Below, in pieces: positions 567-22,394 of a stretch of 64,000 nt of DNA; within the stretch, counting starts at the first letter, position 1; every line of letters begins with the position of its first letter. Below the pieces are notes generated by a model, which saw only the letters and a list, made by a program, of their open reading frames with translations, was not told where the DNA came from and ran no database searches. The DNA lies in NCBI GenBank assembly GCA_963779825.1, contig CAVZZU010000009.1:72258-136257 (forward strand), written 5' to 3'. Made by a program: the position numbers and the translations under genes. Origin of the DNA: an uncultured Acidobacteriota bacterium (GTDB lineage Bacteria; Acidobacteriota; Terriglobia; Acidiferrales; UBA7541).

Positions 567-662
567 CTTCTTCGATCTGGCCGTAGCCCTGGGCTGTGTT
601 CTCTCCCATCCGTCGAGGCGCCCGGGCAGGGTTCGAGTAAGCCGAATACGCGCGGATGGCTG

Positions 663-696
663 AAGGGCCGCCTCTGAAGGCGGCCCTTTTTGTTTT
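663..696 (+). terminator. Rho-independent terminator
   Basis: 10-bp GC-rich stem AAGGGCCGCC/GGCGGCCCTT with a 6-nt loop, followed by TTTTTGTTTT. Confidence 0.85.
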
Positions 697-1212
697 GCGG
701 TGCCCGCGATTTCACCGGCGGGCGGGTGAAGCAGCCTCATCGCGCGCGTGTAAATGTCACACCCGTGTTCCTTGGTGCCTCGGCTTAAATCTGTGGGTGT
801 CGCACCCCTTCACCCGGTGCTTGCTCTCGCAATGTGGAATAACTCCGCGCCGGGCACGACACTTGACCCGGCCTGCCGGAACCCGACAACCGGGCCACCC
901 AAGTCCCCGGCATGACAGGACCTAGACGCCCCGGTTAGGGGCGCTCGGGAGATTGTCGAGTCTGGTGCATCAGCCGGGCCTAATTCGGCGGCCGGGATTA
1001 CCCTGACAGCCAAGCAAGCTGAAATCGTCACGAGACGCCTGTGGACTTTCGCGTCCCCGTTCGCCGATCCCTCCATCATTGCGGTTCGCGGCTCGCTCGG
1101 ATACGATCTGCAGTTCAACTGGCAAGGAACGTGCCGGGCGCATCATACGAACCCAATTCTCCGGAGCGACCTTGACTGCTGCCGCGCGAAACTGGCACGG
1201 GAATCACTGACG

Positions 1213-3045
1213 ATGACTAAAATGGACGCGACCGTGAAAAAGAAGGGCTTCCCGCTTCCCAGTTCGCTGAAGGTGATCGCGGGCACCGAGGCGGCGCAAG
1301 CCGGCTATCCTTACTACACGCAATTCTCCAAAGAAGACGACGACCGGTTCTGGTTTTACAACTCCATGCACTTTCCCGAGCCGATGTGCGTCTTCGACAT
1401 GATCACCGCCGAAGCCGCCTATGCCGCCCTGGGCTCGGCGAATACGCGCGTTCATTCCCTGCCGACCACGCTCGGCATTGATTGCCGGATCATCAACGGC
1501 CGCGTCTATATCGGCGGTAACGCCGTCACCGATCCTGCGGAGATCGCCAAGCGCACGGAAGAATTTCAGCTTCGCGCTTTCTACTACTACGCAAACTGGG
1601 AGCGGCTCTTCGCGCAGTGGAAGAATAAGATGATGAAGCTCATTCGCGACGCCGAGGCGCTACCGAAACTGGAGCTTCCGGAATTCGAGCCGCTGGAACA
1701 CGTTCATGCCGGCCGCGGCGTCGCCTCCAATCACTACATCCTTGAAACGTATCAGAAAACTCTGGAAGGCTACTTCCGGATGTGGCAGCACCATTTCGAG
1801 TTTCTCCTGCTCGGATACGGCGCTTACCTGACCTTCTTCGATTTCTGCAAGAAAGCGTTCCCGGAAATCAGTGATCAGACGGTAGCGCGCATGGTGGCGG
1901 GCATCGAGGCGGAAATCTTTCGTCCCGATGACGAGCTTCGGCGCCTCGCGAAATGCGCCATTGAACTCGGCGTGGATGGCCAGTTCCGCGAAGGCCTAAC
2001 GCCGGACCAGATCATCAAGTCTCTAGAGAAACTCGGTGAGAAAGGCGCGGCCTGGTTGAAGGAACTCGCTATTTCGCGCGATCCCTGGTTCAACATCAAC
2101 GTCGGCGACGGCTTCTATCATTACCATCGTTCGTGGAACGACGACTTGACCATGCCTTTCGGCGCCCTGCCGAACTACATCGCAAATGCCAAGAAGGGCG
2201 AGCGCCTCGAACGCCAGACGGACAAATTAATCACTGAACGCAAGCAGCTGATTGCCGACTACCGCGAGCTTTTGGAGACCGACGACGAGCGCGCTGCATA
2301 CGATCAGATGATCGAGCTCGCGCACCGCGTCTTCCCGTACGTCGAGGGGCACAAATTTTATTGCGAGCATTGGTACACCAACCTTTTCTTCAACAAGATT
2401 CGCGAATTCGGCGCCATGCTCGCTTCAAAAGGATTCTTCCCCGATACCGAAGACGTATTTCAGTTGAGCCATTACGAACTGGAAGCGGCGATCGTTGACC
2501 TGATGACTTCCTGGTCGAACGGTTCTCCTCCGCGCGGTATTTCGCACTGGCCCGCAATCGTTCGAGAACGCAAGGCAGCGATCAAGGAATGGGCGAAGCA
2601 CGCAACTGCTCCGGCGCTTGGACCCGTTCCCGACATCATTGATGATCCTGCGATCGTGATGCTGTGGGGGATCACCCGCGAGAATCTCGATAAGTGGCTG
2701 ACGGCCGGCGAGAAGCCGGATTCCAATGAGATCAGAGGCTTCGCCGCTTCGAATGGTGTGGTCGAGGGCATCGCCCGCGTCGTGAAATCTGCGGACGAGA
2801 TTAGTCGCCTGCGCAAAGGCGACATCCTGGTTTGCCAGGTCACCAATCCGAGCTGGGCTCCCGTTTTCCAGAATATCTCCGCGGCAGTATCCGACATCGG
2901 CGGCTCGATGAGCCACGCGGCGATTGTGGCGCGTGAGTATGGCCTGCCCGCTGTGGTCGGCACAGGCACCGGCACTCAGAAAATTAAGGACGGCCAACGA
3001 ATCCGCGTTGACGGCGGCCGCGGCGTAGTAACCCTTCTCGAGTAG
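1213..3045 (+). CDS. PEP-utilising-enzyme family phosphotransferase, large subunit. The N-terminal ~470 aa are an unassigned domain and the C-terminus is a phosphohistidine swivel domain. PpsA-like, as in phenylphosphate synthase.
   Basis: The C-terminal motif GGSMSHAAIVAREYGLPAVVGTG marks the mobile His domain. The protein ends right after it, so there is no PEP/pyruvate TIM-barrel domain. 610 aa. Confidence 0.85.
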   Translation: MTKMDATVKKKGFPLPSSLKVIAGTEAAQAGYPYYTQFSKEDDDRFWFYNSMHFPEPMCVFDMITAEAAYAALGSANTRVHSLPTTLGIDCRIINGRVYIGGNAVTDPAEIAKRTEEFQLRAFYYYANWERLFAQWKNKMMKLIRDAEALPKLELPEFEPLEHVHAGRGVASNHYILETYQKTLEGYFRMWQHHFEFLLLGYGAYLTFFDFCKKAFPEISDQTVARMVAGIEAEIFRPDDELRRLAKCAIELGVDGQFREGLTPDQIIKSLEKLGEKGAAWLKELAISRDPWFNINVGDGFYHYHRSWNDDLTMPFGALPNYIANAKKGERLERQTDKLITERKQLIADYRELLETDDERAAYDQMIELAHRVFPYVEGHKFYCEHWYTNLFFNKIREFGAMLASKGFFPDTEDVFQLSHYELEAAIVDLMTSWSNGSPPRGISHWPAIVRERKAAIKEWAKHATAPALGPVPDIIDDPAIVMLWGITRENLDKWLTAGEKPDSNEIRGFAASNGVVEGIARVVKSADEISRLRKGDILVCQVTNPSWAPVFQNISAAVSDIGGSMSHAAIVAREYGLPAVVGTGTGTQKIKDGQRIRVDGGRGVVTLLE

Positions 3046-3055
3046 AATAGACTTC

Positions 3056-4105
3056 GTGCACTCTTCAGAGATCATTGGCTGGTTTGCGGACATCGGTCTC
3101 TCCGATCGCCCGACTGTCGGCGGTAAAGGCGGATCGCTGGGCGAAATGACGCGGGCGAGCATTCCTGTGCCGCCCGGCTTCGTGGTGCGAACTGCCGCGT
3201 TTGAGCGTTTTCTTCGAGCGCTCGAAAAGGAAGAGCCGATTCGCCCGAAGGTAGAAGCTCTGGGTGCGGATCAACTCGACGAGATCACTGCGCTTTCCAA
3301 GCATCTCCGCGCACGTTTGGAAAGTGTGCCGCTGCCGGACGACATCAATTCCGAACTCATCGCGGCGCACGCAGAACTTTGTGGCGCGAACTGCGATTCG
3401 CCTGTGGCGGTGCGCTCGTCGGCCACCACCGAGGACGCTGAAGACGCCAGTTTTGCGGGACTCCAGGACACGTACTTGTGGGTGAAGGATGCGCAGTCAA
3501 CAATGAAATACGTGCGCTCCTGCTGGGCCAGTCTCTATTCCGTTCCCTCGATTGCGTACCGCCGTAAGCACGGCTTGCCGGAAACCGGCGTGGCCATGGC
3601 GGTCGTAATTCAGCGGATGGTGAATGCGCGAACCGCGGGAGTGATGTTCACGCGCAGCCCCCTGACCGGCGACCGTTCTGTAATCACCATCGAAGGAGCA
3701 TGGGGTCTCGGCTCCGCTGTGGTGAGCGGGGAGGTCACGCCCGACCGCTTCGTGATCGCCAAGATCACCGGCGAAATCTCCGTGCGCGATATTTCCGACA
3801 AGCACATTCAACATTTGCCTGCGCCGGATGGCGGCGTCATCGAGGTTGAAACTCCAGAAAATCTCCGGCGAGAACCCTGCCTTAGCGACCCAGAGATCGT
3901 CGCGCTCCGGGACATCGCCCGCAGGATCGAGCGCCACTACGGCCGCCCGCAGGATATCGAGTGGGCCGTTGATCAGTCCGGCGACATCTTGTTGTTGCAG
4001 AGCCGGCCAGAGACAGTTTGGTCCTCGAAGGACCGTGCGCCCGTCGCCAAGCCTGCGGAGAATCCGCTTCACCACGTCATGAAAATCTTCGGAGGCCGCC
4101 GGTGA
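3056..4105 (+). CDS. PEP synthase / PPDK N-terminal ATP-binding (ATP-grasp) domain protein, PpsB-like
   Basis: N-terminal VGGKGGSLGEM...IPVPPGFVV and DIEWA motifs are typical of PPDK_N. 349 aa. It starts 10 nt after the preceding gene. Confidence 0.85.
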   Translation: MHSSEIIGWFADIGLSDRPTVGGKGGSLGEMTRASIPVPPGFVVRTAAFERFLRALEKEEPIRPKVEALGADQLDEITALSKHLRARLESVPLPDDINSELIAAHAELCGANCDSPVAVRSSATTEDAEDASFAGLQDTYLWVKDAQSTMKYVRSCWASLYSVPSIAYRRKHGLPETGVAMAVVIQRMVNARTAGVMFTRSPLTGDRSVITIEGAWGLGSAVVSGEVTPDRFVIAKITGEISVRDISDKHIQHLPAPDGGVIEVETPENLRREPCLSDPEIVALRDIARRIERHYGRPQDIEWAVDQSGDILLLQSRPETVWSSKDRAPVAKPAENPLHHVMKIFGGRR

Positions 4106-4563
4106 CTCTCACTGCCAAGGACGTGGCGGAGATCATGCGGCTGCTCGAACAATCGAGTTTCGATAACCTCTCGCTCGAAATTGACGGCGTGAAGCTGAAC
4201 CTGCAACGCGGCTCGGCCGCTCTTATCCGTGAGTCTGCGGTCCCCGTCCCGTCAGTCCAGTCGCAGCCGAAGCCGCTGCAATCAGCTTCGCCAAAAATCA
4301 AACCGCCGTCCGAGCCCGGACTCGCGGAAGTCGCCTCTCCTCTGCTCGGAATTTTCTATCGCGCGCCCAAGCCCGGCGAGCCGCCGTTCGTCGAAGTTGG
4401 CTCGAAAGTCGAAGACGACACGGTCATCGGCATCATCGAAGTGATGAAATTAATGAACTCCGTGCGCGCTGGCGTGAAAGGCGAAGTGGTCGAGATACTG
4501 GCGGAAAACGCGGCGCTCGTCGAATATGACGAGATTTTGCTGCGCCTGCGCCCCGGAACCTAG
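4102..4563 (+). CDS. Biotin carboxyl carrier protein (stand-alone BCCP)
   Basis: Biotinyl-lysine motif IIEVMKLMN near the C-terminus, plus a Pro/Ala/Ser-rich linker. The GTG start overlaps the upstream TGA (GTGA), with GGAGG 8 nt upstream. Confidence 0.8.
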   Translation: MTLTAKDVAEIMRLLEQSSFDNLSLEIDGVKLNLQRGSAALIRESAVPVPSVQSQPKPLQSASPKIKPPSEPGLAEVASPLLGIFYRAPKPGEPPFVEVGSKVEDDTVIGIIEVMKLMNSVRAGVKGEVVEILAENAALVEYDEILLRLRPGT

Positions 4564-4565
4564 CA

Positions 4566-5942
4566 ATGGCGATCCGCCGCATCCTGATCGCCAATCGCGG
4601 CGAAATTGCTCTCCGCGTCATTCGCACCTGCAAGGCGCTCGGCATCGAAAGCGTTCTGGCTGCTTCCAAGGCGGATATGGATTCGCTTCCCGCTCGCCTC
4701 GCGAACCGCACTCTTTGCATCGGCCCCGCCCGGCCTGCGGATAGTTATCTGCGGGCAGACACGATCGTGCAGGCCGCGCTCAGCGTGAAGGCGGACGTCA
4801 TTCACCCGGGCTACGGATTTCTTTCCGAGCGCGCGGTTCTCGCCAGACTCTGCGAACAAGAAGGCGTAATCTTCATCGGCCCGACGGCCGCTCAAATCGA
4901 GGCCGTCGGCGATAAGCTGCGTGCGCGAGCAGAAGCTGAGTCCGCCGGCGTGCCCACCGCGCCGGGCGGCGCCGTTGCAACCGTGCGCGAAGCCGAAGTG
5001 CTCGGACGAAAAATCGGCGTGCCGCTGCTGATCAAAGCGGTTGGCGGCGGCGGCGGTCGCGGCATGAAGCGAGTGGATCGCCTGGAGGACATACCTTCGG
5101 CAATGGAGCTAGCCGGAGCGGAAGCGGGGTCGGCGTTTGGCGACGCACGCGTTTACCTTGAGCGATTTGTGGAACGCGGCCGCCATGTGGAAGTCCAGGT
5201 CCTCGGTGACGGAAACGGCCGCGTGATACATCTCGGCGAGCGCGACTGTTCGGTTCAGCGCCGCTTTCAAAAGTTGATCGAGGAAACACCGGCTCCCGGC
5301 CTTTCCGCGGACTTTCGTGCGCGCATCCACGCGGCCGCCGTGCACTTTGGCGAGCGGCTCTGCTACCGCAGCGCGGGCACGGTCGAATTCCTCGTTGATC
5401 TGGAGCGTGACGCTTTCTACTTCCTGGAAATGAACGCCCGCATTCAGGTCGAACACCCAATCACGGAAGCGGTAACCGGAATAGACTTGGTGGCCGAGCA
5501 GATCGCCATCGCCGACGGCCGCGGCCTGCGCCTGAAACAAGCGGATGTCCGGAGGAATGGTTGCGCAATCGAGTGCAGGATCAACGCGGAAGATCCAGCG
5601 CGCGATTTTCAGCCCAGCCCCGGCACGGTTCGCACCGCCGTGTGGCCCTTAGGCGAAGGCGTCCGCGTGGATACCCACATTGCTTCTGGTTCTCGCATCC
5701 CGCCATATTACGATTCTCTGATGGCGAAGATTATCGCGCACGGTGCCGATCGCCCCGCGGCAATCGAACGGATGCGCCACGCGCTCGCAGCGACTCGCAT
5801 CGAGGGCGTCGCCACGAATATCGCGTTCCACTTAGAAGTCCTGGCCGATCCGGAATTTCAAGCCGGAGGCGTGGACACTGGTTTTCTGCCGCGCTTCCTT
5901 GAACGCCAGCGCCTCGCGCAGGGGGTTCGTGCGCATGGCTAA
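4566..5942 (+). CDS. Biotin carboxylase (AccC-type ATP-grasp)
   Basis: Motifs RILIANRGEIALRVIRT, GGGGRGM and EMNARIQVEHPITE. 458 aa. Confidence 0.95.
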   Translation: MAIRRILIANRGEIALRVIRTCKALGIESVLAASKADMDSLPARLANRTLCIGPARPADSYLRADTIVQAALSVKADVIHPGYGFLSERAVLARLCEQEGVIFIGPTAAQIEAVGDKLRARAEAESAGVPTAPGGAVATVREAEVLGRKIGVPLLIKAVGGGGGRGMKRVDRLEDIPSAMELAGAEAGSAFGDARVYLERFVERGRHVEVQVLGDGNGRVIHLGERDCSVQRRFQKLIEETPAPGLSADFRARIHAAAVHFGERLCYRSAGTVEFLVDLERDAFYFLEMNARIQVEHPITEAVTGIDLVAEQIAIADGRGLRLKQADVRRNGCAIECRINAEDPARDFQPSPGTVRTAVWPLGEGVRVDTHIASGSRIPPYYDSLMAKIIAHGADRPAAIERMRHALAATRIEGVATNIAFHLEVLADPEFQAGGVDTGFLPRFLERQRLAQGVRAHG

Positions 5943-7416
5943 AGTACAAATCGTAGAAACTTCGCTGCGTGACGGCAACCAGTGCCTTTGGTCCGCCCTC
6001 GGCGTGGACACAGCTCGCAGCCTGACCATCGCGCCCGTCATGGACCGCGTGGGTTTCAAGGCCATAGATTTCACCACCTCGACTCACATGGGCGTTGCTG
6101 TCCGTTTCAAAAAGGAAGATCCCTGGGAACGCATTCGCCTGATGGCCGCAGCTATGCCGAAGACGCCGTTGCAATTCCTCTCCACCGGATTTCGTTTTAT
6201 TTCCTGGGAAACGGCCAGCCCCGAGTTCATGGCGCTCGTGTTCAAGACTCTCATCAACAACGGTATGCGCCGGTTCGCTTTGGCCGATCCAATGAACGAC
6301 GCGGACTCCAACGTCGCCTGCGCGCGCATGATCAAAGCGGCCGGGGGCGAGTACGTGATCGGCGCGCTCGTCTTTACGCTGAGTCCCATTCACGACGACA
6401 CTCACTACGTTGCCCGCGCCAGCACGCTTGCCGCAAGCCCCGATGTGGACGCGGTATACATCAAAGATCCCGGCGGTCTTTTGACGCCCTTGCGCGCCCG
6501 CACACTTATTCCGGCCATCAAGGCCGTCATCGGCAGCAAGCCGCTCGAGCTGCATTCGCACTGCACCATCGGCATCGGCGAACTCACATACATGGACGCG
6601 CCCGATTGGGGCGTGAGCGCCGTTCAATGCGCGTCGGGCGGCGTCGCCGACGGCATTTCCAATCCGCCATCCGAGCGCGTAGTTTCCAATCTCCGCGCGC
6701 TGGGGCATCAGGTGGACGTGGACGATCAGGCGCTCGCGGAGGTCGGCCGCTACTTCACCCGCCTTGCCGCGGCGGAAGGGCTCCCCACCGGCAGCCCGCA
6801 GGCTTTCGACGCCAGCTATCTTCGCCACCAAATGCCGGGAGGAACCGTTGGCACGATGCGCCGCCATCTTGCCGAAACCAGAGTCTCCCATTTGGAGGGT
6901 GCCGTTGTTGAGGAGTTGGACCGCGTGCGCCAGGAGCTTGGCTGGCCGATCGTGATGACTCCTTTCGCGCAGATGTTGATCACCCAGGCGGTAATGAACG
7001 TCACCGGAAAAGAGCGCTACGCCACCATTCCCGACGAAATCATCCGCTACGCGCTGGGAAAATTCGGCCGGCCCAATATTCCGATTGCGCCGGAGGTGAT
7101 GGGTCGCATTGAGTCTCTGCCTCGCACGCGCGAGCTGCGCCAACAACCGGGAATGCCGCCTCTGCGCGAATTGCGCCAGCGCATCGGCCCGGAATTAAGC
7201 GACGAGGAATTTCTCCTTCGTGCCACCATGCCCTCCGGTCAGGTGGACGCGATGAAGGCGGCCGGGCCTGCGGAAAAAAACTACGATCCTGATATGGCTC
7301 CGGTGATGAGCCTGCTTCGTCAATTGAGTGCCATTCGTGACATCGCTTACCTGTCAATCGAAAAGGGCAGCTTCAAGCTTGAACTGCGCGGGCAGGCTGC
7401 CCCGGTGGAGGCGTGA
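5935..7416 (+). CDS. Carboxyltransferase subunit, HMGL-like (pyruvate carboxylase subunit B / oxaloacetate decarboxylase alpha type), lacking its own biotinyl domain
   Basis: The N-terminus reads MAKVQIVETSLRDGNQCLWS, a TIM-barrel carboxyltransferase signature. No AMKM motif at the C-terminus. The start overlaps the end of the biotin carboxylase gene by 8 nt. Confidence 0.8.
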   Translation: MAKVQIVETSLRDGNQCLWSALGVDTARSLTIAPVMDRVGFKAIDFTTSTHMGVAVRFKKEDPWERIRLMAAAMPKTPLQFLSTGFRFISWETASPEFMALVFKTLINNGMRRFALADPMNDADSNVACARMIKAAGGEYVIGALVFTLSPIHDDTHYVARASTLAASPDVDAVYIKDPGGLLTPLRARTLIPAIKAVIGSKPLELHSHCTIGIGELTYMDAPDWGVSAVQCASGGVADGISNPPSERVVSNLRALGHQVDVDDQALAEVGRYFTRLAAAEGLPTGSPQAFDASYLRHQMPGGTVGTMRRHLAETRVSHLEGAVVEELDRVRQELGWPIVMTPFAQMLITQAVMNVTGKERYATIPDEIIRYALGKFGRPNIPIAPEVMGRIESLPRTRELRQQPGMPPLRELRQRIGPELSDEEFLLRATMPSGQVDAMKAAGPAEKNYDPDMAPVMSLLRQLSAIRDIAYLSIEKGSFKLELRGQAAPVEA

Positions 7417-8297
7417 GCATGGCTTCGCGTGGCAAACGTTGGAATGAGCCTTTGGGGCCTGTCGAGGGCTTCATGTTCGATCTCGACGGCACACTGCTCC
7501 TCAGTGACCGCTCCCTCGGCGGTTACCGCTTGCTGCCCGGAGCCGTCGAGATTCTGTGCGAGCTACAAACTCGCGGCATTCCGTTCGTCGTGCTCACGAA
7601 CGGCACCGCGTACCCGGTGGCGGAGCAGGCGCCGAAACTCCGCGCGCTGGGCCTGCCCATTTCCGATGAGGCGTTGCTCACGCCGAACACCGTCACAGCG
7701 GACCTGATGCCGAAGCGCGGCGTGAAGCGCGCCCTCGTGTTAGGCGTGCCGGGGGTGGGCCAGCCGCTCGCCGAAGCCGGCATCGAGACTGTCTTCCCCG
7801 GAAAAGATCGCGCCGAAGATGTACAGGCGGTATATGTCGGCTGGCACCCGGACTGTGGCATGAAGGATATCGAAGCGGCCTGCAAAGCGATCTGGAATGG
7901 CGCCGAGCTTTACGTCGCCTCCGACGTCCCTTTTTTTGCCACGTCCGCCGGCAAAACGATGGGGTACTCGCACGCAATCGTCGCCGCGGTCAGAAAGATA
8001 ACGCACGCTCCCATGATTCTTACCGGCAAGCCCTCATTGCATGCGCTGAGGCTGGTCGCAAAAAAACTCGGCATTCCCATGCGCAGGGTCGGCGTAGTTG
8101 GCGACGATCCGCTCGTGGAAATGATCATGGCCCGGCGCGGCGGAGCAATGGGCTTTGGTGTGACCACCGGTTTCACAACCGAGGAGGACTGGGCCGCGCT
8201 ACCGCGCGCTCGCCGCCCGCATCGGATCGTGGGCAGCCTCGACGAAATTCTGAAGCTGACCGCTTCCCCATCCGGGAAATCACGTCGGAGCAAGTGA
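7413..8297 (+). CDS. HAD-superfamily hydrolase, subfamily IIA (NagD-like phosphatase)
   Basis: Motif I FDLDGTLL, motif II VLTNGT, and K...GDD motifs. The GTG start overlaps the upstream TGA; an alternative ATG lies at 7419. Confidence 0.8.
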   Translation: MSMASRGKRWNEPLGPVEGFMFDLDGTLLLSDRSLGGYRLLPGAVEILCELQTRGIPFVVLTNGTAYPVAEQAPKLRALGLPISDEALLTPNTVTADLMPKRGVKRALVLGVPGVGQPLAEAGIETVFPGKDRAEDVQAVYVGWHPDCGMKDIEAACKAIWNGAELYVASDVPFFATSAGKTMGYSHAIVAAVRKITHAPMILTGKPSLHALRLVAKKLGIPMRRVGVVGDDPLVEMIMARRGGAMGFGVTTGFTTEEDWAALPRARRPHRIVGSLDEILKLTASPSGKSRRSK

Positions 8298-8455: not shown

Positions 8456-9397
8456 CTACCGCGCCGAAGCGGTGTCAACGCGCAGCCCTCCCTTTCCGCC
8501 GGAACTCAAATGAGCTCGCTTCTCCATCTCCACGATCACAGCCGAAAAATCAAGCTCCTGTGCTTGGGCCGCTTGTGCCGCATTGATTTCGAAAGCCGCT
8601 CGTGTCGCAGGCGTCTCTGCTTGCACTGCAGCTGCGAGGCTCAAAATCAGACCGAAGTCCTTGTTCATCAGCCGTAGCGGAAACTGCGGGCTGTAGTCGT
8701 CTATCATGGCTCGTTGTAGCTTTCCCGTATGGGCCGGAGCCACGACTGCGGTGTGGGACAAAACGTCGAGCAAACGATTGCGATCCAGACCAGCCTTCTC
8801 ACCGAGTGCCACGGCTTCGGCAATCGCCTGCATTCCGATTCCCAACAGGCTGTTCACCACCAGCTTCATAATCGCTCCCGAACCGTTTGGGCCCATGTAG
8901 AAATAGCTTCGCGCGATTGCACGGAAAATCGACTCGGCGGCTTCGAAGCAGCCTCGGTCTCCGCCACCAAACAAAACTAACGCTCCCTGTTCGGCAACCG
9001 GAGTGCTCCCGGAAATGGTCACGTCGAGGACGTCAACTCGGCTCTCGGAACCCAGTTTCGAGAGTTCGAGCGACGTCTTCGGATCGACCGTGCTCATGTC
9101 AATGATCAGTGAACCTTTCTTCGTATTGGCGAAGGTCCCCTGCAATCCGCCGTGAACCTTCAAGACAGCTTCATCGGTTGGAAGGCAGGACAACACGACA
9201 TCGCAGCTGGAGGAAAGTGCCGCGACACTTTCCGCGACTGTGCCGCCGTACTGAACAAGCTCCTGCGCCTTGCCGGGGTTCCGGTCATAAGCGGTCAACC
9301 GGAACCCGGATGCAAGCAATCGCTGTGCGATCGGCCGGCCCATATAGCCGATTCCTATAAACCCGAGCCTTGTTGTCTCTGGTGTGATCGGATTCAT
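8456..9397 (-). CDS. NAD(P)-dependent beta-hydroxyacid dehydrogenase (3-hydroxyisobutyrate / 6-phosphogluconate dehydrogenase NAD-binding family)
   Basis: N-terminal Rossmann motif LGFIGIGYMGRPIA. Good SD (AAAGGAGA) upstream of the ATG. Confidence 0.85.
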   Translation of the reverse strand: MNPITPETTRLGFIGIGYMGRPIAQRLLASGFRLTAYDRNPGKAQELVQYGGTVAESVAALSSSCDVVLSCLPTDEAVLKVHGGLQGTFANTKKGSLIIDMSTVDPKTSLELSKLGSESRVDVLDVTISGSTPVAEQGALVLFGGGDRGCFEAAESIFRAIARSYFYMGPNGSGAIMKLVVNSLLGIGMQAIAEAVALGEKAGLDRNRLLDVLSHTAVVAPAHTGKLQRAMIDDYSPQFPLRLMNKDFGLILSLAAAVQAETPATRAAFEINAAQAAQAQELDFSAVIVEMEKRAHLSSGGKGGLRVDTASAR

Positions 9398-9499: not shown

Positions 9500-10501
9500 C
9501 TACGCAGAAGCGGACTTGGTTGTCGGAGGCGCCATGAACTCGGGACCGACGGGATCGGCGATCGCCTGTCGCAGAATCTGGTCGATCGCCACGCGCGTAT
9601 CCGCCTCAAGTTTCCAATCGAGTGCGCCCGACACAGCTTCCAGATCCGCAGGATGGCGCGAGCCCCACAGTGCCGCAGTGATTCCGGCCGTATCCAAGAC
9701 CCAGCGCACCGCAAGATCCATCACATGTTTTCCATAGCGTTTTTGTGCCAAATCATCTAGTTGCTGAACGGCTTTCAGATATTGCGCGTAGCGTGGCAGC
9801 TGGAATTTCGGATCGGACTTGCGGAGGTCGTCGCCGGTGAACTTCGTGTCCGGCCGCATTTTCCCAGTCAGCAGCCCCCGGCACAACGGCCCGTAGGCGA
9901 GTTCGCTCAGACTCTTTTCGCGCACGAACGGCAGCACGTCTCGATCAATTTCCTGTTCGAAGAGGCTGTAGGGAGATTGATTCACGTGCAGCTCGGAAAC
10001 GGACATAAACCGCTCCATCTGCTCCGGCGAATAGTTGCTCACGCCGATCGCGCGGATCAGACCCTCGTTAAACAGGGTTTGCATGGTCCGAGCCGTTTCT
10101 TCGATCGGTACAGTCAAATCTGGCCAATGAACCTGATAGATGTCAATGTAGTCCGTGCGCAAGCGACCGAGCGAATCTTGGATTTCCTGACGGATGCGTC
10201 CGCGCGAGGAGTTTCGGGAAACGGACCCGTTGTGCCACTCGAGTCCTACTTTCGTGGCGATTACAACTTTTTCCCGGTGCCCTCTCTGCTCGATCGCCTT
10301 TCCGACGATTTCTTCGGAAACTCCAAAACCATACACCGGCGCCGTGTCAATCAGGTTAATCCCTTTGTCGAGGGCGGCGTGAATCGTTCGAATCGATTCC
10401 GTTTCGTCGGTGCCTCCCCACATCCAGCCGCCGATGGCCCAAGTACCCAAGGCGATTCGTGAAGCCGTGAGATTGGTGCCTTTGATAGGGATGTATTCCA
10501 T
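9500..10501 (-). CDS. Aldo/keto reductase
   Basis: AKR signatures: IALGTWAIGG, IDTAPVYG, and a long TIM-barrel pattern. The start at 10501 was chosen because GGAGGA precedes it; the ORF-track start at 10516 is also possible. Confidence 0.85.
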   Translation of the reverse strand: MEYIPIKGTNLTASRIALGTWAIGGWMWGGTDETESIRTIHAALDKGINLIDTAPVYGFGVSEEIVGKAIEQRGHREKVVIATKVGLEWHNGSVSRNSSRGRIRQEIQDSLGRLRTDYIDIYQVHWPDLTVPIEETARTMQTLFNEGLIRAIGVSNYSPEQMERFMSVSELHVNQSPYSLFEQEIDRDVLPFVREKSLSELAYGPLCRGLLTGKMRPDTKFTGDDLRKSDPKFQLPRYAQYLKAVQQLDDLAQKRYGKHVMDLAVRWVLDTAGITAALWGSRHPADLEAVSGALDWKLEADTRVAIDQILRQAIADPVGPEFMAPPTTKSASA

Positions 10502-10660
10502 GGCGTCCTCCGGCATTTCTCTCTTTGGAGATCGTTTGTTCTGCTTTCTCCAAGGATTCCACGAAGGCTACTATGCGATTGTCGGAAGCTGGCTTGGGCG
10601 GGCAATTCGGAAACATCCCTGCGTCGCGGTACCGCGCATGCCGCGCTGCTCCACGTTCGC

Positions 10661-16798: not shown

Positions 16799-19700
16799 TT
16801 GGCTCAGACGTCCCGCAGAGACTTCTTCAAGGTTGCGGCGGTCGGTGGCGTCGCCGCCACAGTTTTTGGTTTCGACCTCAAGCCCGCCTACGCTCAGCTC
16901 AAAGAGTTAAAAATCGCGCGCGCGGCCGAGACGCGCTCGACGTGTCCGTACTGCGCGGTGGGTTGCGGAGTCCTCATCTACACGATCGGGGACCGGGCGA
17001 AAAACGTCACGCCGCAGGTGATTCACGTCGAAGGCGATCCCGATCATCCCACCAATCGCGGCACGCTGTGCCCGAAGGGCTCCTCACTTGAACAGGACAT
17101 GTTCAACCCGCGGCGGCTGATGAAGCCGCAAGTCCGGCGGCCTGGCGCAACGGACTGGCAGGACATTTCCTGGGACATGGCCTTGGATGAGATTGCGCAT
17201 TGGACTAAAAAGACCCGTGACGCCACGTTCGTGGAAAAAGACGCGAATGGGCGGACGGTAAACCAGTGCCAAGGCATCTCGTTCATCGGCGGCTGCACCG
17301 ACACAAATGAATTCAATTATCTGGCCGTAAAGGCGATGAGGAGTCTGGGCTTGGTTTATTTAGAAAACCAAGCCCGTGTTTGACACGGCCCCACGGTCTC
17401 AAGTTTGGGACCAACGTTTGGACGCGGGGCGATGACGAATGGCTGGATCGACATCAAGAACACCGACATGATGTTGATCATGGGTGGGAATCCCGCCGAG
17501 AACCATCCCTGCGGCTTCAAGTGGGCGATGGAGGCCAAACGCAACCGGAATGCTAAGCTCATCTCGGTTGATCCGAGATTTACTCGCACGTCCGCGACCG
17601 CCGACCTCTTTCTTCAAATACGCGCCGGGACCGACATTGCATTTCTCGGCGGGCTGATCCGCTACGCCATCGAAAACAACCGGATCGCCAAGGAATATCT
17701 CGTCAATTACACAAACGCCGCGTTCATCGTCGAGGATGGTTTCAAGCTGCCGGACGACGGGCTGTTCTCCGGGTTCGATTCCGCTTCAGGCGCCTACGAT
17801 AAAACCACCTGGAACTATCAAAGTGTAGGAGAAGCCGGCGGCGGGACGGGTGCTGCCTCGCATTCCGGCCATGGTCCTGCTGCACACTCGCCCGGTACAG
17901 CCGCGACACCGGCTCCCACCCTACCGCCAAACGTGGCGTACGATCTGACGCTCCAGCATCCGCGTTGCGTATTCCAACTGTTGAAGCAGCAGTATTCGCG
18001 CTATACGCCTGAAATGGTCGAGCGCATCACCGGCATCCCCAAGGAACAATTCCTCAAGGCCGTTGACATGTTCACCTCCATCCGCAAAGACGGCGACACC
18101 AAGAAGGTGGCCACAATCATCTACGCAGTCGGTTGGACGCAGCACACCTTCGGGACGCAGATTATTCGCACCGCCGCCATGATTCAACTGTTGCTCGGGA
18201 ACGTCGGGCGGGCGGGCGGCGGCGTGAACGCGCTGCGCGGACATTCGAACATTCAGGGCGCAACGGACATGGGCGGGCTCGCGGACGGCATGCCTGGATA
18301 TTTGAAAGTGCCCACTCCTGCGGACACGGACCTGGCGGCGTACCTGAAGCGCACAACACCGACAGCTTCGAAACCCGGCGCCTGGGATTCGTTCAACTAT
18401 TACTCGAACACGTCGAAATTCTTTGTATCCCTGTTGAAAGCGTTCTACGGGGATGCGGCGACGAAGGAAAATGGGTTTGCGTATGATTACTTTCCCAAAG
18501 TGGATCGCGATTATTCGTGGACGCATATCTGGGACGACATGTACAACGGCAAGGTCAAGGGGATGTTTGCGTTCGGGATGAACGGCGTGATGATTGGGCC
18601 GGACACCGCGAAGAACATCGACGCGCTGAAGAAGGCGGACTGGCTTGTCGTGGGCGAAATTTATCCCGATGAGACCAGCGAGTTCTGGAAAGCGCCGGGA
18701 ATCACGGCCGACGAGCAGAAAACCATCAACACGACGGTGTATCGCCTTCCGTGCGCCGGTTTTGCGGAAAAAGACGGCAGCATGACCAACTCGGCGCGCT
18801 GGGTCACATGGAAATATGCTGCAGTACCTCCTCCGGGAGATGCGCGGCTCGATCAGGATATCGTTGCGCAGGTTTTCCTTCGCGTCCGCGGTCTGTACAG
18901 GAAAGAGGGCGGAAAATTCCCCGATCCCATTCTGAATGCAAGTTGGGCATATGCGGACGCGGAACACCCTTCGCTTTCGCAAGTGGCCATGGAGCTCAAC
19001 GGCAGAGCGCTCGCGGACCTGAAGGATGACGCGACGGGCCAGGTCGTGCTAAAGGCGGGCCAGCAGCTACCAGGTTTCGCAGCGCTGAAGGATGACGGCA
19101 CGACCATGTGCGGAAATTGGATCTATTCCGGTATGTGGACGGAAGCGGGGTCGCAATGCCAGCGGCGCGGCACGGAGGATCCTTCGGGCCTGGGAGTGTT
19201 CGGCAACTGGTCGTGGTCGTGGCCTGCCAACCGGCGCATTCTTTACAATCGCGCTTCGTGCAATCCGGACGGGAAGCCGTGGGATCCGGATCGGAAGCAG
19301 ATCGCGTGGAATGAAACGACGGGTAAATGGGCTGGTGCCGACGTGCCGGACTTCAAGGTTGACTCCCCTCCGAAGGATCACATGGGGCCGTTCATCATGA
19401 ACGCGGAGGGCGTGGGGCGTTTGTTCGCTCCCATCGGAGTGCTTGCGGACGGGCCGTTTCCCGAATTTTACGAACCGATCGAAAGCCCGATCAAGAATCC
19501 CCTGCACCCCGATCAATCGAATAATCCGCTGGTGAAGAAGTTCAAGACGCCGTATGACAAGTTTGGATCGCCGGACGAGTACAGCATCGTCTGCACCACC
19601 TACCGGCTGACCGAGCAGTATCACTACTGGACGAAGAATAATCCGATGAATGTGCAGTTGATTCCGGAACCATTCGTGGAGATTCCTGTGGAGTTGGCGG

Positions 19701-19981
19701 ACGAAAAAGGAATTCGCGGGACGGACTTGATCCACGTGATCAGCGCTCGGGGAACCTACACCGCCAAAGCTTTCGTGACGCGGCGTCTGAGGCCGATGAT
19801 GATTGACGGCAAGAAGGTCTATCAGATCGGGCTACCGATTCACCAGGGTTTCCGCGGTATTGACGAGGACGAAGGAAGAAACGCGCGAACGCCGGCGAAT
19901 TTGTTGACACCCACAGTCACCGATCCGAATGCCCACACGCCTGAATCCAAGGGCTTCCTGGTAAAGGTCGAGAAGGCATAG
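16799..19981 (+). CDS. fdnG: Formate dehydrogenase alpha subunit, Tat-exported, selenocysteine-containing (in-frame UGA at 17381-17383)
   Basis: Twin-arginine signal SRRDFFK. The two ORF-track pieces (16799-17383 and 17405-19981) join in frame through TGA in the conserved context ENQARV-U-HGPTVS...FGRGAMTN, as in E. coli FdnG/FdoG. Confidence 0.9.
17381..17412 (+). other. Selenocysteine UGA plus a SECIS-like hairpin
   Basis: The stem GGTCTC/GGGACC with loop AAGTTT begins 12 nt after the UGA. Confidence 0.6.
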
Positions 19982-19990
19982 AGAGCGACG

Positions 19991-20881
19991 ATGAGCCAAG
20001 CCTCAACAGAGATTGTTCGGATATCGGGACACGCCGGGAGTGTCCCGGGCGCTGGCGTGAATCGCGAATATCAAGTTTGCAAGCTCGTTGACACCACGAC
20101 ATGCATCGGCTGCAAAGCATGCGAAGTAGCCTGCCTGGAATGGAACGGCTACACGTTCAGCGAAACCACTTTTGACAATTCGTACCAGACCATGCCGGAG
20201 ACGGCCTGGAACTACTGGAATCTGATCAAGTTCAACGAACACGAGCGCGAAGACGGCAGCATGATGCTGCTGATGCGCAAAGATCAGTGCATGCACTGCG
20301 AAGATCCGGGCTGCCTCGCGGCCTGCCCCGCGGATGCCGCGATCGTGCAGTATGCCAACGGAATCGTTGATTTCCAGGAAGCCAACTGCATCGGTTGCGG
20401 CTATTGCATCACGGGCTGTCCGTTCAATATTCCAAAATTCAGTCCGACGGCGCGCAAGGTTTTCAAGTGTACGCTGTGCAACGATCGCGTGTCGCAAGGC
20501 CTCGAGCCGGCCTGCATCAAGGCATGCCCGACAGGCTGCCTGCATTTCGGGACGAAATCGGAAATGAAGGAACTGGCGGAAACACGAGCCGACCAGCTTC
20601 GCGAACATTCCGGATTCCCGGATGCCGGAGTTTACGACCCGCCGGGGGTTGGCGGCACGCACGTGATTTATGTACTGCACGACGCAAAGAATCCCGAGTT
20701 GTACGGCGGACTGCCGAAAGATCCGCACATTCCGTATTCCGTCTGGCTCTGGAAAAAACCTCTGAAATGGCTAGGCAATCTGGCGATCGTAGGGGGCCTG
20801 GCAGGGCTTGCGTGGCATTACATGCGCTACGGCCCAAAAAGGGAAGAGCCGATCCCGCCAGGCCAAGAGAGACGCCCATGA
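19991..20881 (+). CDS. fdnH: Formate dehydrogenase iron-sulfur (beta) subunit
   Basis: Four Cys clusters (CIGCKACEVAC, CMHCEDPGC, CIGCGYCITGC, CTLCNDR...C) and a C-terminal TM anchor. Confidence 0.92.
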   Translation: MSQASTEIVRISGHAGSVPGAGVNREYQVCKLVDTTTCIGCKACEVACLEWNGYTFSETTFDNSYQTMPETAWNYWNLIKFNEHEREDGSMMLLMRKDQCMHCEDPGCLAACPADAAIVQYANGIVDFQEANCIGCGYCITGCPFNIPKFSPTARKVFKCTLCNDRVSQGLEPACIKACPTGCLHFGTKSEMKELAETRADQLREHSGFPDAGVYDPPGVGGTHVIYVLHDAKNPELYGGLPKDPHIPYSVWLWKKPLKWLGNLAIVGGLAGLAWHYMRYGPKREEPIPPGQERRP

Positions 20882-21558
20882 GCACCGGCACCGTCCAACA
20901 TTCCGCTACTGCGGCAGATCGAAACGAGGAATTGATTTCGCGGTACAGCTTGGGCGAGCGGGCAAACCACTGGCTCGGCGCGCTCACTTACATCTATCTG
21001 TTAGCTACAGGGCTGGCGTTCTGGTCTCCTTACCTGTTTTGGATGGCAGCGGTAGTCGGCGGCGGACCTACCGCAAGATTCTGGCATCCGTGGTTCGGCC
21101 TGATTTTTGCGGCATCGCTCTTCTGGACGTTCAAGGAGTGGCGCCGCGACATGGAGGTGGAAGACGGCGATCGCGCCTGGGCGAAAGCGATACCCGACTA
21201 CATCCAGAACCATGACGAGAAGCTTCCGCCAGTCGGCCGCTTCAACTTTGGACAAAAGCTCTTTTTCTGGGGGATCTTCTACAGCGTGATCTTGCTGCTG
21301 CTCTCCGGTGTCGTCTTGTGGTACACCGAATCGTTACCGTGGAGCCTCCGGTTCGTGCGCTATGCGGCGATTCTGATCCACGCGAGCGCGGCGCTCATCA
21401 CGATCGGCCTGTTCTTAATCCATGTGTATATGAGCACGATCCTCGAAGAGGGCAGCTTCGGTTCCATGGTGCATGGGACCGTCACGCGTGCGTGGGCCTG
21501 GACATTCCATCGGAGCTGGTACTACAAGGTCACCGGTGAATCCCAACCCAAACAATGA
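20878..21558 (+). CDS. fdnI: Formate dehydrogenase cytochrome b556 (gamma) subunit
   Basis: The ATG overlaps the fdnH stop (ATGA). Four TM helices with conserved His residues. The ORF-track N-terminal extension overlaps fdnH and was not used. Confidence 0.85.
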   Translation: MSTGTVQHSATAADRNEELISRYSLGERANHWLGALTYIYLLATGLAFWSPYLFWMAAVVGGGPTARFWHPWFGLIFAASLFWTFKEWRRDMEVEDGDRAWAKAIPDYIQNHDEKLPPVGRFNFGQKLFFWGIFYSVILLLLSGVVLWYTESLPWSLRFVRYAAILIHASAALITIGLFLIHVYMSTILEEGSFGSMVHGTVTRAWAWTFHRSWYYKVTGESQPKQ

Positions 21559-22394
21559 TTGATCCGAAGTGGGATCGCCGCATCCGTCGTGCTAACGAGC
21601 TCGCTTCCACTTATCCATTCGCTGCGGAAGGTCTACGCTATTACGCTCACCTCGTGGCATTTCAGAAAAGCCTGTACGCCGAAATTGGAAAAGCTCTCGC
21701 GGATTCGCCCAAGATTACCGACGGCCGTCCCCTACGCGACGAATTAGATCTCTTTCTCCTGCTTCCTCGTTTCCCGGGGTTTCTGTCAACGATCCAGCAT
21801 GTTGCTCCTGCTCCGCTGGCCGAAGCCGCCGCTCAGCTGGCGCAGCAAGGAAGTGCCGGGTGGCAGCGCGCAATTGAAAGGTTTTGGTACGACGAGTCGG
21901 GATCGGATACAACTGCGAACGATGCGGCGCCGATCGAGCCCGCGGATTCCGATCGATTGCTCGCATGGGTTTTTCTTCAACCCTACGCCGAGTATCTTGC
22001 CGATCACCGCGAAATCGCAGTTGTGCATGGGACTCCGTCAACTTGTCCGCTTTGCGGCGGCAGACCCGTTGTTGGTGTCTTGCGACGCGAAGGCGATGGC
22101 GCGAAAAAATCCCTCATCTGCATGCTCTGTGCGCACGAGTGGGCGTTCCGCAGAATTTATTGCCCGGCGTGCGGAGAAGAACGAGAACCGCAAATGGCAT
22201 TCTATTCCGCGCCCGAAATCGCGCACGTTCGCGTGGACGTCTGCGACACGTGCCATTCCTACCTGAAAACTATCGATTTGACGAAAACGGGCCTGGCGGT
22301 TCCCGTGGTGGACGAGCTGGCTACGATTCCCCTCGACCTGTGGGCACGCGAACACGGCTATGAGAAGCTGCAATTCAATCTGGTGGGGACCTGA
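21555..22394 (+). CDS. fdhE: Formate dehydrogenase accessory protein FdhE
   Basis: CPLCG, CMLC, CPAC and CDTC pairs typical of FdhE. 4-nt overlap with fdnI. Confidence 0.85.
   Translation: MIDPKWDRRIRRANELASTYPFAAEGLRYYAHLVAFQKSLYAEIGKALADSPKITDGRPLRDELDLFLLLPRFPGFLSTIQHVAPAPLAEAAAQLAQQGSAGWQRAIERFWYDESGSDTTANDAAPIEPADSDRLLAWVFLQPYAEYLADHREIAVVHGTPSTCPLCGGRPVVGVLRREGDGAKKSLICMLCAHEWAFRRIYCPACGEEREPQMAFYSAPEIAHVRVDVCDTCHSYLKTIDLTKTGLAVPVVDELATIPLDLWAREHGYEKLQFNLVGT

Follow-up and report, generated by a model that had tools for sequence, protein, structure and literature searches.

What does an operon do in which a two-component kinase resembling phenylphosphate synthase is translationally coupled to a complete biotin-dependent carboxylase and a phosphatase? 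Such an operon occupies positions 1213-8297 of a 64,000-nucleotide stretch of DNA (the window) from an uncultured Acidobacteriota bacterium (GCA_963779825.1, contig CAVZZU010000009.1, positions 72,258-136,257 of the forward strand). The original prediction, made from the letters of the sequence, took it for a module that phosphorylates, carboxylates and dephosphorylates an enolisable ketone, a 2-oxoacid or a phenolic compound, and did not recognise the combination as a described pathway. This last point was mistaken. The combination has been described since 2022, as the Hpe pathway of Rhodococcus rhodochrous GD02 (Dexter et al., 2022, PMC9618137; follow-up of 2025, PMC12167813) and as the Acv system of Sphingobium (lignivorans) sp. 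SYK-6 (Higuchi et al., AEM 2022; bioRxiv 10.1101/2022.04.28.489975), and it has also been surveyed (PMC12624787). The six-gene operon is an Hpe/Acv-type cluster in a new host, and we consider it highly probable that its products carry out the upper part of hydroxyphenylethanone catabolism of the Hpe/Acv type.

Strain GD02 has the genes hpeHICBADEF. Its two-component kinase HpeHI, a homologue of phenylphosphate synthase and of CreHI, phosphorylates the 4-hydroxyl of 4-hydroxyacetophenone and acetovanillone. The three-component biotin carboxylase HpeCBA acts on the phosphorylated ketones only, converting 1 ATP to ADP, and HpeD, a NagD-like phosphatase of the HAD family, prefers the carboxylated phospho-product for dephosphorylation (PMC9618137). 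HpeHI is a dikinase that yields AMP, and its conserved histidine is essential, the H581Q variant being inactive (PMC12167813). The acvABCDEF operon of SYK-6 is homologous and syntenous; none of its genes can be dispensed with when the strain grows on acetovanillone and acetosyringone, and co-transcription of the six was seen by reverse transcription PCR (bioRxiv 10.1101/2022.04.28.489975).

Gene content of the operon and fold of the kinase

The domain content, the catalytic motifs, the homology to characterised proteins, the synteny and the fold of the gene 1 product are what can be seen directly. The six genes (Table 1), five junctions and three motifs quoted in the original prediction are all present in the sequence, and a Pfam search of the six genes returned exactly the domains it had named. 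The stop codon of gene 1 (TAG, 3043-3045) is separated by 10 nt from a GTG at 3056, genes 2 and 3 overlap in GTGA (4102-4105) with a GGAGG 7 nt upstream, gene 3 ends in TAG (4561-4563) 2 nt before the ATG at 4566, genes 4 and 5 share the 8-nt overlap ATGGCTAA (5935-5942) and genes 5 and 6 again meet in GTGA (7413-7416). The start of gene 1 may be ATG 1222 and not 1213, since its closest homologues are 606-607 aa long. For gene 6, ATG 7419 is a possible alternative start.

Table 1. Features of the six-gene operon and of the region preceding it (window coordinates).
Feature	Position	Strand	Length	Assignment
Conserved non-coding block	1084..1212	+	~100-130 nt before gene 1	aligns with the upstream regions of loci L007, L008, L010 and L011
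Gene 1	1213..3045	+	610 aa	dikinase alpha subunit, HpeH/AcvA/PpsA-like
Gene 2	3056..4105	+	349 aa	dikinase beta subunit, stand-alone ATP-grasp, HpeI/AcvB/PpsB-like
Gene 3	4102..4563	+	153 aa	biotin carboxyl carrier protein (BCCP), HpeC/AcvC-like
Gene 4	4566..5942	+	458 aa	biotin carboxylase (BC), HpeB/AcvD-like
Gene 5	5935..7416	+	493 aa	carboxyltransferase (CT), HpeA/AcvE-like
Gene 6	7413..8297	+	294 aa	HAD-IIA (NagD-like) phosphatase, HpeD/AcvF-like

Pfam assigned PF00391 alone to gene 1 (aa 534-604), with the first ~530 residues left without assignment; the PEP/pyruvate-binding TIM barrel PF02896 (PEP, phosphoenolpyruvate) was not found in the scan. The stretch SDIGGSMSHAAIVAREYG is located at aa 560-577. 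The catalytic histidine, predicted from the motif, is H568 within SDIGGSMSH (nt 2890-2943) and is invariant in both kinase alpha alignments that we built. The motif is of the T/SxxGGxxxH form, with Met at position -2 as in HpeH, CreH and PpsA. The only NCBIfam models whose cut-offs are passed by gene 1 are the unnamed PRK08296 family models NF006153/NF006151, and the PEP synthase equivalogs gave 106.7 bits (TIGR01418, cut-off 739.75) and 108.9 bits (NF005057, cut-off 598).

An AlphaFold2 model of gene 1, built from an alignment of 39 sequences, had a mean pLDDT of 91.7. Foldseek matched it over its whole length to 5fbu, a rifampin phosphotransferase (RPH) (E 1e-17, TMq 0.62, 633 columns), and the full-length matches in the PDB were RPH structures only (5FBU, 5FBT, 5HV1 and 5FBS; E 1e-17 to 1e-16, TMq about 0.6, ~630 columns). 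Pyruvate, phosphate dikinase (PPDK), PEP synthase and enzyme I matched only the swivel domain of ~120 residues. As modelled, gene 1 is an RPH-like substrate domain joined to a swivel domain and not a PEP/pyruvate barrel, with a predicted helical phenol-binding domain at ~aa 10-500 followed by the phosphohistidine swivel domain. HpeH likewise corresponds to the rifampin-binding and swivel domains (PMC12167813). The analogies drawn in the original prediction, with RPH and with PpsA/PpsB, are both correct. In the representative search we also came across a protein of 970 aa (P0122), to whose residues 360-963 gene 1 aligns, that is a single-chain fusion of both kinase components in the RPH domain order.

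The remaining genes complete the set. Gene 2 (PF01326, 346 bits) has as its top PDB match 9GOJ, the crystal structure of HpeI (E 5e-73, 43.7% identity over 334 aa), and also matches RPH's ATP-grasp domain. Gene 3 (PF00364) carries the biotinyl-lysine motif EVMKLM at aa 113-118 (nt 4438-4455) and scores 113.7 bits with TIGR00531, slightly below the cut-off of 115.2. Gene 4 (PF00289, PF02786 and PF02785), with the glycine loop GGGGGRGM and EMNARIQVEH, stays under the equivalog cut-offs of the accC models of NCBIfam. Gene 5 combines an HMGL-like TIM barrel with a PYC_OADA domain (PF00682 and PF02436) and has the metal-site motifs ETSLRDGNQ (aa 8-16), IKDPGG and HSH; its top PDB matches are 2nx9 and 5ks8. 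By its scores against the PycB and OadA models (NF006761, 283.9 with a cut-off of 402; NF010644, 229.7 with 734; TIGR01108 (oadA), 244 with 756.5) gene 5 does not qualify as either of them, and Pfam found no fused biotinyl domain in it, the BCCP being encoded separately as gene 3. Gene 6 (PF13344, PF00702 and PF13242) shows the HAD motifs DLDGT, LTNGT, GKP and GDD. The catalytic motifs are intact throughout, i.e., the MKM-type biotin site, the BC glycine loop and EMNxRxQVEH, the Asp/Lys/HxH of the CT and HAD motifs I-IV.

Relatives of the operon and their gene order

Labelled comparators were taken from the top plasmid matches in a tblastn search of gene 1 against PLSDB. A plasmid of Rhodococcus sp. 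JS3073 (L006) carries the six genes plus a ligase and an amidohydrolase, the eight-gene hpe arrangement. Since its HpeI is 97% identical to the crystallised protein of GD02 (PDB 9GOJ), this locus is nearly identical to the characterised hpe cluster, for which it can validly serve as a proxy. Proteins 1-6 of the window match it gene for gene and in order with 46, 45, 58, 51, 42 and 34% identity (tblastn; the figure for gene 3 is over the biotinyl domain). On a Rhizobium leguminosarum plasmid (L001) the six genes, in the same order, precede an HpeE-like acetoacetate-CoA ligase (CoA, coenzyme A) and an HpeF-like amidohydrolase, the identities to the window proteins being 55, 51, 42, 59, 54 and 42%. 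In three other plasmids only the two kinase subunits of the window find partners, with 41-46% identity. One of them, from Azoarcus (L003), bears a bona fide ppsAB-ppsC-ppcBDAG cluster, with a PpsA to which gene 1 is 43% identical; the other two, from Rhodococcus (L004 and L005), bear Cre-type clusters with P450, ferredoxin/reductase, HD phosphohydrolase and aldehyde dehydrogenase genes.

Conservation of the neighbourhood, which the original prediction had proposed to check, was examined in one scan of the GTDB species-representative genomes with gene 1. We used the 80 loci nearest to gene 1 (47-97% identity), and for the synteny count those 64 in which 6.5 kb or more follow the kinase alpha gene. 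All six genes were found in the same order in 47 of these 64 loci, and a further 10 lacked only the BC gene; the rest were mostly partial, or were Chloroflexi loci with a UbiD-type carboxylase as the linked partner of the kinase. In 57 of the 64 the conserved block ends with the HAD phosphatase. As the order is shared by 47 loci from several phyla, the linkage of the six genes goes far beyond chance. Homologues of HpeE and/or HpeF lie within 10 kb in 30 of 60 carboxylase-linked loci. The hosts comprise Acidobacteriota, Steroidobacteraceae and other Gammaproteobacteria, Alpha- and Betaproteobacteria, Eremiobacterota and many Actinomycetota. In the protein database the top 120 matches of gene 1 all have 81% identity or more and come from many metagenomes.

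In a neighbour-joining tree of the kinase alpha subunits (100 bootstraps) the window sequence groups with Acidobacteriota relatives (91/100), inside a clade that also contains Steroidobacteraceae and Alphaproteobacteria (100/100). This clade is nested in a core clade (100/100) whose members, where the flank was long enough, are all carboxylase-linked. The Pps (L003) and Cre (L004 and L005) kinases fall outside the clade of the window. In Steroidobacteraceae of this clade (L019, L020, L024, L025, L028 and L030) HpeE/HpeF homologues adjoin the cassette. The G+C content of the cassette in the window (0.60-0.635) is slightly above that of its flanks (0.56-0.59); together with the nesting of the Acidobacteriota branch among proteobacterial sequences, this hints at a horizontal acquisition.

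Several variants of the cluster were seen among the related loci. Ten of them (L013, L016, L021, L035, L037, L074, L075, L079, L082 and L086) contain kinase alpha and beta, BCCP, CT and HAD genes and no BC gene, the BCCP gene being followed directly by that of the CT. They presumably borrow the housekeeping AccC, and we found no mention of such a variant in the published descriptions of Hpe/Acv. In two of the ten (L013 and L016) there are also ~600 nt extra between the kinase alpha and beta genes, a distance that is otherwise ~10-40 nt in relatives. Five loci (L045, L046, L048, L049 and L064) form a further clade of Acidobacteriota (57% identity to gene 1), with an HpeE-like ligase upstream and an HpeF-like amidohydrolase downstream. 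Given this full arrangement in the second clade, Acidobacteriota hold two distinct versions of the cluster. In three metagenome-assembled genomes (MAGs) of Chloroflexi/Anaerolineales (L070, L073 and L087) homologous kinase alpha and beta genes (47-49% identical) lie beside a UbiD/PpcB-type carboxylase and a HAD gene. In the tree they branch between the GD02-type HpeH and the core clade, so that the type of carboxylase partner may have switched within this kinase lineage. Finally, an integrase (rve) gene is found ~3.2 kb upstream of the cassette in L007 (5996-6793, minus strand) and an AAA_25 gene ~1.3 kb upstream in L008 (7598-8722, minus strand). These neighbours, and the variable downstream flanks, may reflect mobility of the six-gene block.

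Proposed reactions and competing explanations

By homology with the characterised proteins, each of the reactions, their order and the class of substrate would be as follows. Genes 1 and 2 would form a two-component dikinase in which the ATP-grasp subunit (gene 2) presents ATP, a pyrophosphoryl group passes to H568 of the gene 1 swivel and the gamma-phosphate is lost from it, AMP and Pi being set free while the beta-phosphate is kept. The swivel domain would carry this phosphate to the helical substrate domain of gene 1, where it would pass to the para-hydroxyl of a 4-hydroxyphenyl methyl ketone, for instance 4-hydroxyacetophenone (piceol), acetovanillone or acetosyringone. With a second ATP (going to ADP) and bicarbonate, the products of genes 3-5 would act next, the BC loading CO2 on the BCCP and the CT carboxylating the acetyl methyl carbon of the phospho-ketone to 4-phosphophenyl-beta-ketopropionate. 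The HAD-IIA enzyme of gene 6 would then remove the phosphate to give 4-hydroxybenzoylacetate or vanilloylacetate. Later steps would be the formation of a CoA thioester and its cleavage to 4-hydroxybenzoate or vanillate plus acetyl-CoA; they would have to be encoded elsewhere in the genome, since no gene for them is present in the window.

The phosphorylate-carboxylate-dephosphorylate logic on a phenolic, enolisable ketone was thus correctly anticipated, as judged from the characterised Hpe/Acv homologues, while a 2-oxoacid as substrate finds no support. Neither would phosphorylation drive carboxylation in a chemical sense, as had been proposed: in the characterised system the phosphate is on the para-hydroxyl and carboxylation is paid for by the separate conversion of ATP to ADP in the BC. 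Since this phosphate lies far from the acetyl methyl carbon that becomes carboxylated and does not act as a leaving group, the expression 'phosphorylation-driven carboxylation' is inaccurate. The phosphate serves as a handle for recognition or trapping, and the rationale suggested by the Hpe authors was substrate trapping or scavenging, and recognition (PMC9618137 and PMC12167813).

A number of observations weigh against this assignment. No homologue of HpeE or HpeF was detected at E 1e-3 in the 64-kb window, nor beside the cassette in the close Acidobacteriota relatives (L007-L016), and without these enzymes the beta-keto acid would decarboxylate to the ketone, resulting in a futile cycle. 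Ring-cleavage, O-demethylase, vanAB and pobA genes were likewise absent among the Pfam-scanned open reading frames (ORFs) of the window, which had housekeeping functions only. The window proteins are just 34-58% identical to the characterised ones (via the L006 proxy), the core clade is joined to the GD02-type HpeH with weak support (57/100), and the kinases of the three Chloroflexi/Anaerolineales MAGs branch between the two. Besides, any two of HpeH, CreH and PpsA share ~45% identity (PMC12167813), so that the kinase sequence alone does not fix the substrate and the assignment rests on the linked carboxylase and phosphatase. As for the order of the reactions, the authors of the SYK-6 work had first proposed that dephosphorylation precedes carboxylation (bioRxiv 10.1101/2022.04.28.489975). 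The absence of HpeE/HpeF, the unshared flanks and the lack of aromatic-catabolic ORFs in the scans indicate that the cassette behaves as a self-contained six-gene unit, as in SYK-6.

Two other readings of the operon differ from the Hpe/Acv assignment in kind. Homologues of gene 1 are automatically annotated as 'pyruvate, water dikinase' or 'PEP-utilizing enzyme', and PycB and OadA are the top named NCBIfam/PDB matches of gene 5, as would be expected of an anaplerotic or gluconeogenic operon made of a split PEP synthase and a multi-subunit pyruvate (or 2-oxoglutarate) carboxylase. We regard this scenario, which the original prediction itself had named as a refutation, as extremely improbable and have rejected it on domain content, curated cut-offs, fold and context. 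Gene 1 has no PEP/pyruvate barrel by Pfam and shares with PPDK and PEP synthase only the ~120 aa of the swivel, the PEP synthase equivalogs reach 107-109 bits against cut-offs of 598-740, gene 5 stays well under those of PycB/OadA, and HpeE and HpeF are recurrent neighbours in related loci; moreover, the HAD phosphatase would have no role, yet it is kept in almost all of the 64 loci (see above). It is also very unlikely that the kinase serves phenol catabolism as a phenylphosphate synthase (PpsAB), or acts on 4-methylphenol in the manner of CreHI, and simply lies beside an unrelated carboxylase. Gene 1 shares 43% identity with the Azoarcus PpsA and 41-42% with Rhodococcus CreH-type proteins, and HpeHI itself turns over phenol and cresol, at low efficiency (PMC12167813). 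However, the window contains no UbiD/Ppc carboxylase, PpsC-like CBS protein, Cre-type P450, HD phosphohydrolase or aldehyde dehydrogenase, and tblastn found the Pps/Cre partner genes only in the L003-L005 plasmids and the Chloroflexi loci; homologues of PpcB/PpsC were restricted to L003, L073 and L087, with none beside gene 1 or in the clade of the window. With these partners absent, the Pps and Cre kinases elsewhere in the phylogeny, and the kinase tied to the biotin carboxylase by translational coupling of the six genes and by conserved synteny, this possibility was rejected too.

Closer to the Hpe/Acv assignment is the idea that the same machinery serves another para-hydroxyphenyl ketone or phenol, the clade of the window being a functionally distinct sub-branch; candidates would be acetosyringone, 4-hydroxypropiophenone, 3,4-dihydroxyacetophenone (pungenol) or a non-lignin phenolic ketone. 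We hold this to be unlikely, but by no means negligible. The clade, which unites Acidobacteriota, Steroidobacteraceae and some Alphaproteobacteria at 70-97% identity to gene 1, is separate with 100% support, the window gene 1 is just 46% identical to the HpeH proxy, and the Acidobacteriota members have no adjacent hpeEF. The dikinase is thought to determine the specificity of the pathway (PMC12167813), and the characterised homologues already differ in preference, AcvAB for acetosyringone and HpeHI for 4-hydroxyacetophenone and acetovanillone. On the other side, the presence of HpeE/HpeF beside the cassette in Steroidobacteraceae of the very same clade argues for the same type of beta-ketopropionate product.

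Surroundings of the operon and comparison with known systems

The block that precedes gene 1 (Table 1) is presumably a promoter/operator region or a 5' leader; the sequence upstream of it diverges among the four loci with which it aligns (L007, L008, L010 and L011). It gave no match to an Rfam family and no sigma-70 consensus, and a simple scan found neither a sigma-70-like promoter nor a terminator after gene 6. A sigma-54 promoter at TGGCAC (1193) was considered and rejected, since the match of its -12 element is poor, conservation in L007/L008 is lacking and the start codon is too near. Further upstream, a strong terminator-like hairpin at 662-689 (plus strand; 12-bp stem with 8 G-C pairs, followed by a T-run) ends upstream transcription, and from there to gene 1 there are ~520 nt without an ORF. 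An Rfam hit to ftsZ-DE on the minus strand of this hairpin was sub-threshold (E 0.026) and probably due to chance. Short repeats were also seen upstream of gene 1, of doubtful meaning.

Downstream, a beta-hydroxyacid dehydrogenase (8456-9397, minus strand), an aldo/keto reductase (9500-10516, minus strand) and RND efflux genes were tried as parts of the system and discarded, with no homologue in 88 related loci; the downstream neighbours already differ in relatives of 92% and 97% identity. In the Acidobacteriota of this clade that we sampled, the six-gene cassette stands alone, without hpeEF and with unrelated flanks. No AraC regulator was found in the 64-kb window at E 1e-3, and AraC-like genes occur near the cassette in some related loci. 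In another part of the window a formate dehydrogenase-N-type molybdopterin subunit (16799-19981, plus strand) has an in-frame TGA (17381-17383) inside ENQARV*HGPTV, which we take to be the classic selenocysteine position. Next to come are genes for a 4Fe-4S subunit (19991-20881), for a cytochrome b (20395-21558) and for FdhE (21555-22394).

Conceptually there is nothing new in this operon, the mechanism being known since 2022. The new element is the distribution, i.e., Acidobacteriota as a host group, the abundance in metagenomes of the clade to which the window belongs, and the lack of hpeEF both in the window and next to the cassette in the close Acidobacteriota relatives that we sampled. 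The colocalised cluster has been called rare, with four further genomes noted in 2022 and a heterodimeric kinase, carboxylase and phosphatase found together in 25 of 17,510 representative genomes (PMC12624787, 2025). Hosts named in the published surveys are Alphaproteobacteria, Actinomycetota and Bacillota; our literature search found nothing that links Acidobacteriota to the Hpe/Acv pathway, and the descriptions that we found do not mention the phylum. The cassette is present in many uncultured Acidobacteriota and Steroidobacteraceae MAGs, which suggests that two major soil groups use the pathway on compounds of the 4-hydroxyacetophenone type, for example piceol from conifers, apocynin and products of lignin breakdown. 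The sequences add to the pool of enzyme variants for lignin-valorisation engineering as well. That the clade of the window might use a different natural phenolic ketone, or a different downstream route for the beta-keto acid, seems to us rather doubtful; if true, it would be a functionally new sub-branch of Hpe/Acv and an unrecognised route of phenolic-ketone turnover in soil Acidobacteriota.

Among the closest known systems, the Hpe cluster of GD02 agrees with the window in its six kinds of gene and their order, in junctions that overlap or nearly abut, in the RPH-like fold of kinase alpha, in Met at -2 of the catalytic histidine, in separate BCCP, BC and CT, and in a NagD-like HAD. It differs from the window in having hpeE (CoA ligase) and hpeF (beta-ketoacyl-CoA hydrolase), which are found neither after the phosphatase nor elsewhere in the window; in the residue that precedes the catalytic histidine, Cys in HpeH and Ser in the window (as in CreH and PpsA); and in its host, an actinomycete as opposed to an uncultured Acidobacteriota bacterium. 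The Acv operon of SYK-6, compared here by its published description and not by sequence identity, is also a six-gene operon of kinase alpha, kinase beta, BCCP, BC, CT and HAD. There, too, the downstream genes are not beside the cassette, the CoA-dependent VceA and VceB being encoded elsewhere, and the co-transcription observed matches the translational coupling of the window genes. However, SYK-6 has the AraC-type acvR directly upstream, whereas the 1.2 kb upstream of gene 1 contain no such ORF. By description as well, XccABC of Aromatoleum aromaticum EbN1 is a homologous biotin carboxylase, with 4-hydroxyacetophenone as its proposed substrate for carboxylation, that is clustered with hpeHI homologues in a p-ethylphenol / 4-hydroxyacetophenone cluster (PMC9618137). 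Its order is xccA-xccC-xccB and its host an anaerobic denitrifier, while the organism of the window encodes an aa3-type oxidase.

Other known systems share the kinase only. The Pps (Thauera, Azoarcus) and CreHI (Corynebacterium, Rhodococcus) enzymes are two-component dikinases of the same family, 41-43% identical, that convert ATP to AMP and Pi via a phosphohistidine, but neither works with a biotin enzyme. In PpsABC/PpcABCD the partner is a UbiD-type carboxylase that releases the phosphate during carboxylation of the ring, and in the Cre system the partners are a P450 and an HD phosphohydrolase. Rifampin phosphotransferase (5FBS, 5FBT, 5FBU and 5HV1) has the same swivel-histidine dikinase mechanism, but with ~18% identity and in a single chain of the order ATP-grasp, substrate and swivel domain, and it is an antibiotic resistance enzyme and not a catabolic one.

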